From assembly GCF_988243305.1 (NCBI RefSeq), contig NZ_OZ547136.1: DNA of 64,000 bases. The stretch is one strand, 5' to 3'. Of the stretch, positions 60,329 through 64,000 are shown piece by piece (positions within the stretch are counted from its first letter, which is position 1; each line of letters starts with the position of its first letter). The notes under the pieces were generated by a model that made no database searches, had not been told where the DNA came from, and worked only from the letters and a program-made list of their open reading frames with translations. The position numbers and the translations under genes were made by a program.

Positions 60329-63300
60329 TTATGTTGGCAAAGCAATTTTCCCCGTGAGCATATCAAACATCAGATAAGCAAAGCCCTTTGCCCGAACTGG
60401 ATCGGATAAATATTGCAACATAAATTCTTGCCGAGCGTCATTACTGTCCATTACAGCATTATCAACTGCCTGGAGGAAATCACCAAGAATCGCTTGTTCT
60501 GGCGGATTGTTTTTAATTTGTGTCATAACATTTTCATTTTCAGTTATTTTGTTATACACCGAAAAAGCATTGCTGATCATATCTTTCTCGGTCAAATGGT
60601 CGCTAATGAATAATTCATTCATCCGAGAAAGCACCTGCGATAAAAATTCCTCTTTTTTATCTTTCGCTTTTGCCGTACCAATATCATTACTTGCATCCAG
60701 CGTATAGTCAGGCGTTTCTTCCTGTAAACGTAAATCTTGCTCATGGATTTTCGATAAACGATAGTGACTCATCTCTACATTACTGAGATCAATTTCATCC
60801 TCTTCCAGACGTTGCTCATGCAGCAGCGGACGCAGATGACGGGCAAACAGGCTTAGCTTTTCCAGATCTTTGTCATCGTATTCGACGATCTGCGACATAA
60901 ATTCGTAAAAGCGAACAAAGCTGCCGAGATCTTTTTTGAATATTTCCAGACGATCTTTTTCCTGCTTACAGGCTTTAAAACTGTTTTCCGCATTAGTGAT
61001 TAACACCGTATCGCCCGTTTTTTTGGTGCGCTCGAACATCTCTTTGGCGGTCAGATAAGCGTCTATCGCCATCAGATAACGCTTTTTCCAGCGTTCTACC
61101 GCCGGTTTGCATATATTACTGATCGCTGCATTCGATTTATTTTTGATGAAGAATGCCTCGCAGAACTGCTCGACTTCATGCCACTGAAAGATCTGCGTGG
61201 CGCGCAGTTTTTCAAACAGATCGAAAACCTGCTGCGGATCGCTGACATCGGTCAGTTCCGCCGTCTGGAAATAGGGCTGGAACGCGCCGAGGATCTCGTC
61301 CGGATCGTTATAAAAATCGAGAACAAAAGTGCCTGATTCCGCTTTGCCCGGATAGGTGCGATTCAGGCGGGAGAGCGTCTGCACGCACTCGACGCCGCCG
61401 AGGGCTTTATCCACGTACATCGCGCACAGTTTCGGCTGGTCAAAACCGGTCTGGAATTTATTGGCGACCAACATGACCTGATAATCATCGCTGTCGAAGG
61501 CTTTGCGCATATCCCGCCCTTTCAGGCCGGGGTTCATGTTTATTTCAGTAAATTTCTGGTTTAACAATGCCAGGCTGTTATGGTCGCCTTCCTGGAATTC
61601 AACTTCCCCGGAAAACGCCACCATCGCGCTGATTTTCTGGTAATTGTTCTCGCTAATGTATTTATCAAACGCCAGCTTGTAGCGTACAGCGGCTTTGCGT
61701 GAACTGGTGACCACCATCGCTTTAGCCTGGCCGCCAAGCAGGTGCATCACATGTTTGCGGAAGTGCTCCACAATCACCTTCACCTTCTGCGAGATATTGT
61801 GGTCGTGCAGTGTCACCCACTGGTTGAGCTTAATCTTCGCCCGTTTGCTATCGACTTCGCGGTCTTTGTCTTCCAGCTTTTGCAGCAACTGATACGCCAC
61901 TTTGTAGTTGGTGTAGTTTTTCAGCACGTCGAGGATAAAGCCTTCTTCGATTGCCTGGCGCATGGAGTAGACGTGGAAGGCCTCAGGTTTATTGGTTTTT
62001 GACGCCGGTTCATCGGGACGTGGACGGCGACCAAAAAGTTCGAGGGTTTTGGATTTTGGCGTGGCGGTAAAGGCGTAGTAGTTCAGGTTACTGCTGCCTT
62101 TCCGGGCGGCAATGGTCGCATCCAGAATATCTTCTGACGACAGCACCACGTCATTATCCATTTCTTCGCTCATCAGCACTTCTTTAAGCTGACGGGCGGT
62201 GGAACCGCTCTGCGAGGAGTGCGCTTCGTCGGCAATCACCGCATATTTACGCTGCTTCAGGCTGACGCTGTTTTCGATTGCTTTCAGTACGAATGGGAAC
62301 GTCTGGATGGTGACAATAATGATCGGCTGCGAGTTTTCCAGCGCGCTGGCCAGCTTTTCCGATTTGGAGCCGTCGCCCTCTTTGTTATTGATGCGCCCGA
62401 CCACGCCGTCGGCGTGTTCGAACTGCCAGATGGTGTCCTGAAGCTGGTCGTCCAGCACCGTGCGGTCCGTCACCACGATAATGGAGTGGAACTGTTTTTC
62501 CCCGTTCACGTCGTACAGACGAGAAAGCTGGTGGGCGGTCCAGGCAATGGAGTTCGATTTACCGGAACCGGCGCTGTGCTGGATCAGGTATTTATGGCCG
62601 GTTCCTTCAATCGTCGCGGCCTCCAGCAGTTTGTTGACCACATCCCACTGATGATAACGCGGGAAAATCAGGCTCTCTTTCTTCGCTTTCAGCCCGTTCC
62701 ACTCCTCTTTTTCTTCAATATGCAAATGGACAAAACTGGCGAGGATTTTTAATAAGTTGTCCGGCAGCAGCACTTCATTCCACAGATAATCTGTGGCGTA
62801 GCGGTGGGTATCTTCGGGGATCTCGTTGCCTGCGCCGCCGTCTTTGGTGCCTTTGTTAAACGGCAGGAAGAAGGTGCTGTCACCCGCGAGTTTGGTGGTC
62901 ATAAAGACGTCATACTGGCTGACGGCAAAATGCACCAGCGCGCCGCGCTTAAAGGTCAGCAGCGGTTCCGGTTTATTGGTGGCGGGATCTTTCGGCAGGC
63001 GGGTCTTTTTGTACTGCGCAATGGCGTTCTGCACCGCCTGTTTGAATTCGGATTTCAGCTCCAGCGTGGCAATTGGCAGGCCGTTGATAAACAGCACCAG
63101 GTCGATGCGCCATTTTTTGGCTTTCACGCCCGTTTCTGCAAAGACGCTATTTGAGGCATACGGGCTGTAGACCAGTTCCGGCACGATACGGCAGATATTC
63201 TGCTGATAGCGCGCCAGCGTTTCCGGGTTGAGATTATGTTCCGGTTTAAACTGACACAGCGAAAAACGGGCATTGCGGATTTTCAGTCCGTGGCGAAGTA

Positions 63301-63592
63301 CGCCGAGCGTACCCCAGGTGCGCGACTGGATGTCGGTGGCGTTGCTGTCGGCTTTTTTTAACTGCGCAACCAGCGCGTCGAGGAAATGGCGCTCGGTGTC
63401 GTTGGGGTAAACGCGGGCGAATTTCTCCCACTCCTGTGGTTGGGTGATTTGTACAAAGAGCAGGGCGTCTTGTGCGTATAGCGCACGTTCACGATCGTAG
63501 CCGTCGCCTTTGCCGACAATCCAGCCTTTTGCTGCCATCTGCGCGATGATGTCGTTTTGTAGGTTGACCTCTTTTGCAATGTCGTTGCTCAT
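60329..63592 (-). CDS. hsdR: type I restriction enzyme R subunit
   Basis: 1087-aa ORF; N-terminal PD-(D/E)xK-like region (IDLVLFINGLPIATLELKSE), helicase motif I HSAGSGKSNSIAW, motif II VIADEAHSSQ, motif III FTATP. Confidence 0.85.
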   Translation of the reverse strand: MSNDIAKEVNLQNDIIAQMAAKGWIVGKGDGYDRERALYAQDALLFVQITQPQEWEKFARVYPNDTERHFLDALVAQLKKADSNATDIQSRTWGTLGVLRHGLKIRNARFSLCQFKPEHNLNPETLARYQQNICRIVPELVYSPYASNSVFAETGVKAKKWRIDLVLFINGLPIATLELKSEFKQAVQNAIAQYKKTRLPKDPATNKPEPLLTFKRGALVHFAVSQYDVFMTTKLAGDSTFFLPFNKGTKDGGAGNEIPEDTHRYATDYLWNEVLLPDNLLKILASFVHLHIEEKEEWNGLKAKKESLIFPRYHQWDVVNKLLEAATIEGTGHKYLIQHSAGSGKSNSIAWTAHQLSRLYDVNGEKQFHSIIVVTDRTVLDDQLQDTIWQFEHADGVVGRINNKEGDGSKSEKLASALENSQPIIIVTIQTFPFVLKAIENSVSLKQRKYAVIADEAHSSQSGSTARQLKEVLMSEEMDNDVVLSSEDILDATIAARKGSSNLNYYAFTATPKSKTLELFGRRPRPDEPASKTNKPEAFHVYSMRQAIEEGFILDVLKNYTNYKVAYQLLQKLEDKDREVDSKRAKIKLNQWVTLHDHNISQKVKVIVEHFRKHVMHLLGGQAKAMVVTSSRKAAVRYKLAFDKYISENNYQKISAMVAFSGEVEFQEGDHNSLALLNQKFTEINMNPGLKGRDMRKAFDSDDYQVMLVANKFQTGFDQPKLCAMYVDKALGGVECVQTLSRLNRTYPGKAESGTFVLDFYNDPDEILGAFQPYFQTAELTDVSDPQQVFDLFEKLRATQIFQWHEVEQFCEAFFIKNKSNAAISNICKPAVERWKKRYLMAIDAYLTAKEMFERTKKTGDTVLITNAENSFKACKQEKDRLEIFKKDLGSFVRFYEFMSQIVEYDDKDLEKLSLFARHLRPLLHEQRLEEDEIDLSNVEMSHYRLSKIHEQDLRLQEETPDYTLDASNDIGTAKAKDKKEEFLSQVLSRMNELFISDHLTEKDMISNAFSVYNKITENENVMTQIKNNPPEQAILGDFLQAVDNAVMDSNDARQEFMLQYLSDPVRAKGFAYLMFDMLTGKIALPT

Positions 63593-64000
63593 GCGCTGGC
63601 CTCCGTGGGTGTTTCTGCTTTGGGGATGGGGGCGGTCCAGTTGCGTAGGTCGATTTTTCCGGTGACGGCAGCGGAGATAAGGGCGGTGCGGCGTTCCTGG
63701 ATTAGCATTATTGCTTGATTGGTTTTAAATATTATGAGATCAATTTGTGCGCATTTTTCATTCAAGGCGTTGACGATTGATTGTGCTTCACCCAATGGGG
63801 GAAATATAAACTTGGTTGTTTTAAAGTCACCTAATGAAACTCTTTTTCTTGTTCCCTCAATACTAATGTTATTAATGGTTTGTCGCCCAAAATTTGAGTT
63901 CAATAGATATGCTATGAAATGTGCATTGAAGGTTTTTTTATTAACTCTTACTCTCATAACATCTTGCGTTATGACAGCATCTGGTTCATTTTTAGGATAA
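63589..64000 (-). CDS. hsdS: type I restriction-modification specificity subunit, C-terminal part (N-terminus beyond window end)
   Basis: Reading frame open from the window end through ...NEPDAVITQDVMRVRVNKKTFNAHFIAYLLNSNFGRQ...PPLGEAQSIVNALNEKCAQIDLII...; HsdS-like TRD plus conserved C-terminal coiled-coil motif; stop overlaps hsdR start by 4 bp. Confidence 0.65.
   Translation of the reverse strand, partial: YPKNEPDAVITQDVMRVRVNKKTFNAHFIAYLLNSNFGRQTINNISIEGTRKRVSLGDFKTTKFIFPPLGEAQSIVNALNEKCAQIDLIIFKTNQAIMLIQERRTALISAAVTGKIDLRNWTAPIPKAETPTEASA

Follow-up and report, generated by a model that had tools for sequence, protein, structure and literature searches.

The end of the window, by which we mean the whole 64,000-nucleotide stretch of contig NZ_OZ547136.1 (assembly GCF_988243305.1) that was analysed, very probably carries the promoter-distal part of a three-gene hsdM-hsdS-hsdR operon, located in the variable slot between yjiS and yjiA, where it replaces the gene set of K-12 (yjiT/yjiV, mcrBC, symE, the EcoKI hsdRMS genes and mrr). 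Cassette replacement at this immigration control locus has been known for decades. The window covers hsdR and the 3' end of hsdS (Table 1); beyond base 64000 lie the remaining two thirds of hsdS, on its 5' side, and hsdM. The system is an unremarkable type I system whose family is either unnamed or related to IE, and has already been annotated as type I R, S and M in RefSeq and public genomes.

Table 1. Features identified at the hsd end of the window.
Feature	Position	Strand	Basis
yjiS (DUF1127), conserved left anchor	59311..59475	+	annotated yjiS in strain 135, K-12 and EC958
237-aa AT-rich ORF with 4-5 hydrophobic segments	59551..60264	-	ORF list, hydropathy
Inverted repeat GCCGGGGT...ACCCCGGC with 10-nt loop, between hsdR stop and 237-aa ORF start	60292..60316	-	read from sequence
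hsdR, intact, type I restriction (helicase-nuclease) subunit, 1087 aa	60329..63592	-	ORF, Pfam, identity
DEAH box, helicase motif II, HsdR residues 455-458 (plus strand gtgcgcttcgtc)	62219..62230	-	
Walker A / helicase motif I, GSGKS, HsdR residues 342-346	62555..62569	-	
PD-(D/E)xK nuclease motif, HsdR D164...E178-L-K180	63053..63103	-	pattern search on translation
ATGA overlap of hsdS stop (TGA) and hsdR start (ATG)	63589..63592	-	ORF coordinates and sequence
hsdS 3' part, last 136 codons, cut at window end	63589..64000	-	in frame, no stops
GGAGG, Shine-Dalgarno-like, within hsdS coding sequence, 7 nt 5' of hsdR ATG	63600..63604	-	

Four genomes aligned at the locus agree through GGAGTGA, at the yjiS stop, and diverge from the very next base; the variable cassette starts directly after this stop. 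Because homology to K-12 and EC958 ends exactly there, the hsd genes of the window are placed at the immigration control locus, as had been claimed in the original prediction. Among the ORFs of the window, none between yjiS and hsdR corresponds to mcrB, mcrC, symE, yjiT or yjiV, in agreement with the claim that mcrBC and symE are missing from this interval, and the sole ORF of note found there encodes 237 aa. The K-12 layout, which had been described with hsdR first and mcrBC-symE between yjiS and hsdS, matches NC_000913, with the order yjiS, yjiT, yjiV', mcrC, mcrB, symE/symR, hsdS, hsdM, hsdR, mrr and yjiA, and with R-M-S as the transcriptional order of the hsd genes. The window genome has a frameshift in a neighbouring Rpn-family gene.

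The large ORF was typed as a type I R subunit by Pfam, NCBIfam and PADLOC. Its Pfam domains comprise HSDR_N (residues 132-237), SWI2_SNF2/ResIII/DEAD (311-571) and a T1R_D3-like domain (623-757), giving the combination of an N-terminal PD-(D/E)xK nuclease and an SF2 DEAD-box motor that is general to type I R subunits, and the nuclease region aligns with those of EcoKI and type ID HsdR. In addition to the nuclease (D164/E178/K180), GSGKS and DEAH motifs of Table 1, the sequence QTLSRLNR is present at residues 738-745. The protein shares 98.6% identity with the HsdR annotated in E. coli strain 135, and 99% with a cluster of 832 members (P0001). A pseudogene was ruled out, since the hsdR reading frame is complete and every catalytic motif is in place, and a helicase-nuclease outside type I was ruled out by the domains and by the adjacent hsdS and hsdM genes, hsdM being seen in relatives. 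The GC content in most of hsdR is about 50-56%; its last (3') 700 bp and the next ORF are low in GC and show patchy divergence from the closest complete genome.

The plus strand at 63587-63595 reads ...gct cat gcg..., with the hsdR ATG at 63592-63590 and the hsdS TGA at 63591-63589, which bears out the reported succession of hsdS and hsdR with a 4-bp overlap, together with the GGAGG upstream. The hsdS ORF, which ends at 63589 on the minus strand and stays open in frame to the window end, matches specificity subunits, with 98.5% identity to residues 332-467 of the strain 135 HsdS (467 aa), and spans the last part of the second target recognition domain together with the conserved C-terminal helix. 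Since its similarity to EcoKI HsdS is generic (21-27%, conserved regions only), no half-site can be predicted from this fragment. The same 4-base overlap of hsdS and hsdR is annotated in strain 135, PapRG-06-5, E. fergusonii and Citrobacter, but it is not family-wide, since two Vibrio relatives show a gap of 72-78 bp in its place. With the hsdR start codon lying within the hsdS stop and preceded by its own GGAGG, the ribosomes that terminate on hsdS are probably those that go on to translate hsdR, and such a translational coupling would tie the synthesis of R to that of M and S, and would place R after both. Promoter and terminator scans returned fewer sites than, or no more than, shuffled sequence; the operon structure is inferred from the sequence. 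The inverted repeat at 60292..60316 is possibly a weak terminator or an RNA-stabilising hairpin; it was not called in the terminator scan, because its loop is longer than 8 nt and no T-run directly follows.

In E. coli strain 135 the order is yjiS, a hypothetical gene, hsdR, hsdS, hsdM, GmrSD, Fic, BrnA and yjiA, with an HsdM of 781 aa comprising HsdM_N and N6_Mtase domains, and with hsdM and hsdS overlapping by one base in the annotation. PapRG-06-5 shows the same layout with an HsdS of 446 aa. The order M-S-R was found in every complete relative checked, including, besides these two, E. fergusonii and Citrobacter portucalensis (both at the same locus) and two Vibrio genomic islands (HsdM of 778 and 761 aa), and all of them carry intact M, S and R genes. 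The position of R as the last gene, as originally proposed, is thereby upheld, and hsdM, whose location downstream of hsdR had been named as an argument against the proposal, lies upstream in each of these genomes. In general, a type I system combines hsdR with a neighbouring hsdS, whose product has two target recognition domains, and with an hsdM for an N6-adenine methyltransferase. In relatives at 97.7% DNA identity a full HsdS (446-467 aa) and HsdM (781 aa) are next in line, suggesting that hsdM and the rest of hsdS are also present in the window genome.

The cassette is carried by 114 of the 5,426 complete E. coli genomes (about 2%). Homologues with 77-90% identity are found in Enterobacterales, Vibrio, Shewanella, Pseudoalteromonas and Alteromonas. 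The family, which is gammaproteobacterial and has been widely transferred, falls within a "long HsdM" superfamily that includes the system of plasmid pKpQIL. Because just 38 of the 114 carriers share the hsdS 3' end of the window, specificity appears to vary on a conserved M/R frame, which is what a functional type I family would be expected to show. The literature yielded expression, methylation or restriction data for no family member, and the RefSeq protein accessions gave no matches there. The type I system of V. cholerae VPI-2 (PMC11411939) was considered as a studied member and set aside, as no link was shown: the sole V. cholerae match in the close HsdR family is a single contig and not of the pandemic lineage, and the V. 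mimicus relative sits in a different island.

That the window holds a different type I family allele, and not EcoKI, was part of the original prediction, and comparison of HsdR with representatives of IA, IB, IC and ID found it close to none. With EcoKI HsdR (IA) it shares 23% identity over only 411 aa, and not an end-to-end alignment, while the HsdM of strain 135 shares 28% with EcoKI HsdM over 260 aa. Identity to the HsdR of CFT073, whose system has been assigned to type IB (PMC8287963), is 31% over 81 aa; a phmmer search of PDB matched EcoR124I HsdR (IC) at 43.7 bits in a single 65-residue stretch; and identity to the type ID HsdR of EC958 (EcoMII) is 24% over 680 aa, with 27.5% for HsdM. 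EcoMII, chosen as type ID proxy via the ST131 methylome paper, has an R subunit 92% identical to that of StySBLI (PMC4659465), and within the type IA family the identity between UTI89 and K-12 is about 99% (PMC8287963).

The curated HsdR models under-score the window family. The NCBIfam models gave 1739, 1192 and 471 bits for the IA, IB and ID HsdR, all above their own cutoffs, whereas the window HsdR reached 179.5 bits on TIGR00348 (cutoff 284.55; 471 for the ID protein) and had no match to NF008521 or NF046051, the models of the EcoKI and IB scores. Similarly, on the PADLOC REase_I models the IA, IB and ID proteins reached 2835, 1705 and 1717 bits on their own models and the window HsdR at most 127; the HsdM of strain 135 scored 931 bits on MTase_I PDLC03029. 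Because the window HsdR does not reach the cutoffs of the curated models tried, surveys built on such models could overlook this family. The system also differs from what would be expected of an IA member (HsdR and HsdM highly similar to EcoKI, R-M-S order), a IB member (an HsdR of about 810 aa of the EcoAI/FtnUII family, short HsdM, long HsdS), a IC member (HsdR similar to EcoR124I) or an ID member (HsdR and HsdM similar to StySBLI, via the EcoMII proxy). By sequence, the HsdR family is distinct from the enteric IA, IB, IC and ID families.

Formally, type I families are defined by subunit exchange in vivo (complementation), and a review of 9,040 enterobacterial genomes reported only IA, IB and ID at this locus (PMC12707154); this review either missed the present minority family or filed it under one of these three names. 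We tentatively propose, at somewhat less than even confidence, that, besides IA, IB and ID, a fourth type I family occupies the immigration control locus of E. coli, with a share of about 2% of complete genomes, that this family belongs to the long-HsdM superfamily together with pKpQIL and may constitute a sixth, unnamed exchange family other than IE, and that an orphan membrane protein always accompanies it in Escherichia.

Of the distinct relatives identified, the closest is the type I system on the Klebsiella pneumoniae plasmid pKpQIL, which shares the M-S-R order, a long HsdM (675 aa) and an HsdR of 1085 aa, with 40% identity end to end for HsdR (residues 1-1079) and 45% for HsdM. Each HsdM matches the PADLOC model MTase_I PDLC03029, and for the HsdR proteins no PADLOC REase_I model gives a good fit. 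In contrast to the window system, that of pKpQIL is plasmid-borne, its hsdS and hsdR genes abut without overlap and the 237-aa ORF is absent; at 40-45% identity the two are much too divergent to share an exchange family. EcoR124I also has the M-S-R order, and the domain plan of its HsdR has been solved (PDB 2W00), but it is plasmid-borne and similar to the window HsdR only in the short stretch given above. EcoKI resembles the window system in its slot, strand, three-subunit logic and HsdR with nuclease motif and DEAD-box motor, but has R-M-S order with separate hsdR and hsdMS units, and the K-12 locus carries yjiT, yjiV, mcrBC, symE/symR and mrr, all absent from the window. The EcoAI-type (IB) system of CFT073 is likewise a type I system in the same slot, but with R-M-S order and subunits of 810 (HsdR), 489 (HsdM) and 589 aa (HsdS). 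EcoMII, an experimentally active methylase with the motif AAC(N4)CTTT (PMC4659465), occupies the same slot and shares the M-S-R order, an HsdR of 1087 aa and brnTA beside yjiA; the order by itself is thus not unusual, since EC958 has it at this very locus. However, EcoMII has a 94-bp gap between hsdS and hsdR where the window has an overlap, symE between yjiS and hsdR, and an Mrr-like companion gene instead of the GmrSD/Fic of strain 135.

Among the other readings considered, membership in family IE, typified by KpnBI of Klebsiella pneumoniae, is unlikely. In the description by Chin and colleagues from 2004, KpnBI reportedly has an unusually long hsdM (2082 bp) with a one-base overlap of hsdM and hsdS, subunits only 25-33% identical to IA-ID, and a best database match that then stood at 53%. 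The window family resembles KpnBI in its HsdM of 781 aa, its one-base hsdM/hsdS overlap and its 23-28% identity to IA-ID, and the related long-HsdM system of 675 aa is common on Klebsiella plasmids. Nevertheless, HsdM lengths differ (781 aa against 693 aa for KpnBI), few members of the close HsdR family are from Klebsiella, and a family that is known today at 77-90% identity from many genera would not be expected to have had a best match of 53% in 2004. Moreover, the HsdM relatives of about 680-700 aa, recovered by an HsdM search with cluster look-up, were from Streptomyces, Tissierellaceae and metagenomes, with no Klebsiella among them.

It is improbable that the genes are a decaying remnant, with hsdR retained by chance and no restriction or modification left. 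Such decay would fit a window without hsdM, the frameshifted Rpn-family neighbour and the low GC and patchy divergence of the hsdR 3' end and next ORF, but the hsdR gene is complete, retains every catalytic motif and matches intact, widely conserved proteins at 98.6-99% identity. Moreover, the 136 hsdS codons within the window are undamaged and match an annotated complete gene at 98.5% identity, and all complete relatives checked have intact M, S and R. Finally, a type ID allele (the StySBLI/EcoR9I/KpnAI family, the third family at this locus and also hsdM-hsdS-hsdR), which the restriction of the locus to IA, IB and ID with brnAT and GmrSD as companions (PMC12707154) and the EcoMII likenesses of gene order, brnTA and yjiA neighbours and HsdR length would favour, is highly improbable and was refuted at the sequence level by the direct comparison with EcoMII, given the identities of 24% and 27.5%, the HsdR scores of 179 and 127 bits against 471 (TIGR00348) and 1717 (PADLOC PDLC03040) for the ID protein, an HsdM of 781 against 539 aa, and Salmonella matches to the window HsdR family that are rare and from subspecies salamae, StySBLI-type systems being reported from serovar Enteritidis.

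If the preferred reading of an intact hsdM-hsdS-hsdR cassette holds, the system would, from established type I biology, be expected to be active: HsdS with two HsdM would form a methyltransferase marking a bipartite target on host DNA with m6A, and on a complex at an unmethylated target two HsdR would join, translocate DNA with ATP and cleave at a distance. The restriction barrier of the carrier strain would then differ from those of K-12, B, CFT073 and ST131, which is relevant for transformation, conjugation and phage work. The finding adds a minority family to the cassette catalogue of a textbook defence island, given as IA, IB and ID only in a 2025 review (PMC12707154); its practical value is modest, and the understanding of type I enzymes and of the locus is unchanged.

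The 237-aa ORF that fills the gap between yjiS and hsdR was passed over in the original prediction. It follows hsdR on the minus strand after a gap of 64 bp and has a GC content of 24-32%. Searches against PADLOC, NCBIfam, PHROGs and Pfam gave no usable family, the Pfam matches being weak and composition-driven. This orphan low-GC membrane protein could be an accessory component of the type I system. Homologues were found in E. coli and E. fergusonii only, in addition to two metagenome matches at 40-42%; in E. fergusonii the ORF occupies the equivalent position, and the complete E. coli genomes that encode it are precisely the 114 carriers of the hsd cassette.

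The final 9 kb of the window correspond to the left part of the immigration control region of E. coli, and E. coli chromosomes are 98-99% identical to it in the flank of the cassette (hsdM-hsdS-hsdR and a 237-aa ORF, between yjiS and yjiA). The 1087-aa protein shows the domain architecture of type I R subunits (HSDR_N, SWI2/SNF2-ResIII-DEAD, T1R_D3-like) with all catalytic motifs intact (D164/E178/K180, GSGKS 342-346, DEAH 455-458, QTLSRLNR 738-745), and the partial ORF encodes the C-terminal 136 residues of the specificity subunit (HsdS). The 4-bp overlap that had been described between the two genes was recovered as ATGA at 63589-63592, shared by the stop codon of hsdS and the start codon of hsdR, with GGAGG 7 nt upstream of the hsdR ATG. 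Given these ORF identities, the ATGA overlap and the GGAGG, the original prediction on this hsd end was right in every particular; the finding stands, and its reading was correct. In the Rpn-family recombination-promoting nuclease gene, one base is inserted compared to strain 135, a complete E. coli relative with an annotated cassette, where the gene is intact (318 aa). The resulting frameshift near 57099 breaks the window gene into 193-aa and 82-aa ORFs, and it is a pseudogene, like rpnD in K-12.

Features at the right end of the window
Feature	Position	Strand
mdtM	54823-56064	-
Rpn-family (rpnD-like) gene	56522-57479	+
yjiR	57722-59134	-
yjiS	59311-59475	+
237-aa ORF	59551-60264	-
hsdR, 1087-aa ORF	60329-63592	-
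partial hsdS ORF	ends 63589, continues past window end	

In K-12 (NC_000913) the order is yjiS, yjiT, yjiV', mcrC, mcrB, symE/symR, hsdS, hsdM, hsdR, mrr, yjiA, with hsdR transcribed first, in agreement with the original statement that hsdR leads there and that mcrBC-symE separate yjiS from hsdS. When the window was aligned with K-12, the ST131 strain EC958 and strain 135, all were identical as far as the yjiS stop codon, beyond which strain 135 alone still matched the window. As the identity ends at this codon, the alignment puts the left boundary of the exchangeable cassette at base 59475/59476. Carrier genomes, counted when at least 80% of 59200-64000 was covered, numbered 114 of the 5,426 complete E. 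coli genomes (best match 97.7%). The locus of strain 135 comprises yjiS, the 237-aa ORF, hsdR, hsdS (467 aa), hsdM (781 aa), GmrSD, a Fic protein, BrnA and yjiA; this layout is also found in E. fergusonii and in E. coli PapRG-06-5 (HsdS of 446 aa, brnT/brnA present). In Citrobacter portucalensis, hsdM (781 aa)-hsdS-hsdR adjoins yjiA and has the 4-base S/R overlap of the window. In Vibrio parahaemolyticus and V. mimicus, M-S-R is found in islands with an integrase, where, unlike in the window, S and R do not overlap (gap of 72-78 bp); in V. mimicus, hsdM and hsdS are separated by an Abi_2 gene. Since the order is M-S-R in all these relatives, R is last throughout the family, as had been proposed, and by analogy hsdM very probably lies upstream of the hsdS copy of the window.

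In E. coli, E. fergusonii and Citrobacter the hsd cassette comes with a 699-aa GmrSD-type restriction enzyme (locus records L001, of the closest complete genome, 22424-25742; L006, 12459-14558; L011, 1-1672), which adjoins hsdM in Escherichia and hsdR in Citrobacter.

The window HsdR is 23% identical over 411 aa to that of EcoKI (IA, K-12) and 31% over 81 aa to that of CFT073, whose system has been typed as IB (PMC8287963); EcoR124I (IC, PDB) gave 43.7 bits over one 65-residue stretch. For type ID the EC958 EcoMII locus served as proxy instead of the prototype sequence, with 24% identity over 680 aa for HsdR and 27.5% for HsdM; EcoMII is arranged hsdM-hsdS-hsdR beside mrr, and its R subunit is 92% identical to StySBLI R (ST131 methylome, PMC4659465). 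The IA, IB and ID HsdR proteins score 1739, 1192 and 471 bits in NCBIfam, all above their cutoffs, and 2835, 1705 and 1717 bits in PADLOC, each on the REase_I model for its type. The window HsdR reaches 179.5 bits on NCBIfam TIGR00348, under the cutoff of 284.55, and at best 127 bits in PADLOC; the partner HsdM matches PADLOC MTase_I model PDLC03029 over its full length (931 bits). These low identities and curated-model scores place the system, as judged from sequence, outside IA, IB, IC and ID, the four families compared. The proposal that a type I family different from that of EcoKI occupies the immigration control locus was thus borne out, both by the low HsdR identity to EcoKI and by a cassette that starts after yjiS.

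It has long been established that restriction genes are swapped like cassettes between yjiS and yjiA (PMC3874165; PMC12707154). M-S-R order is common among type I systems, and RefSeq already annotates the cassette genes as the R, S and M subunits of a type I system. A 2025 review of 9,040 enterobacterial genomes reported only IA, IB and ID at this locus (PMC12707154); its survey may have missed the cassette or filed it under another letter. Occupancy by a family outside IA, IB and ID was not found in the literature searched. This is an ordinary type I system, of a well-understood kind, at a locus famous for exactly such variation.

By homology, an M2S methyltransferase would mark a bipartite target, and an R2M2S complex would translocate and cut unmarked DNA. 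The S/R overlap and the good ribosome site suggest that hsdR translation is coupled to the completion of hsdS, which would make R appear later and in smaller amounts than M and S. Promoter and terminator scans of the locus were uninformative, and the overlap is absent from the Vibrio relatives. The hsdS fragment resembles EcoKI HsdS in framework only. Of the 114 E. coli carriers, only 38 have the 3' end of the window's hsdS, and HsdS length differs among relatives, so the family combines several specificities with a conserved M/R frame, in the manner of working type I families.

Compared to the closest complete genome, several 200-bp bins of window 59600-63600 show zero differences, while 60000-60200, 60800-61000, 62200-62400 and 63400-63600 show 10-30 each. 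This patchy divergence suggests recombination between alleles inside hsdR and at the S/R junction. GC content is lower in the 3' 700 bp of hsdR (60329-61050, minus strand; 36-43% vs 50-57% in the rest of the gene), a part encoding a C-terminal region without a Pfam domain.

The 237-aa ORF, which occupies the yjiS-hsdR gap, is very AT-rich (24-32% GC) and encodes 4-5 hydrophobic segments. Among complete E. coli genomes it occurs in the 114 that carry the hsd cassette and in no others, and E. fergusonii has it as well; homologues outside Escherichia are almost absent, and no family was found in Pfam, NCBIfam, PADLOC or PHROGs. Separate acquisition is probable, as its composition is sharply unlike that of the hsd genes.

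Members of the HsdR family share 77-90% identity across Citrobacter, Enterobacter, Serratia, Erwinia, Pantoea, Vibrio, Shewanella, Pseudoalteromonas and Alteromonas, and the family is rare in Salmonella and Klebsiella. Among distinct relatives, the type I system of Klebsiella pneumoniae pKpQIL plasmids is closest; it shares the M-S-R order, with an HsdR 40% identical end to end and a 675-aa HsdM that is 45% identical and likewise matches PDLC03029. Neither HsdR has a PADLOC REase_I match at E<=1e-40. The HsdM C-terminal extension (~320 residues, no Pfam domain) is conserved between the two systems, and HsdM relatives of 640-880 aa are numerous. HsdM is reportedly long in KpnBI (IE) too, a lead towards possible IE kinship; Klebsiella relatives of ~693 aa were looked for and none were found. 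A related M-S-R system is carried by ~480 plasmid records from Klebsiella, most of them conjugative and pKpQIL among them (record L012, 3660-10258). Finally, Enterobacter 307-aa proteins named DUF5655 share a 90%-identity cluster (that of P0065) with a 1086-aa HsdR of the window family, which may be an artefact of the clustering or reflect a module in common; a DUF5655 match also occurs in GmrSD neighbours.
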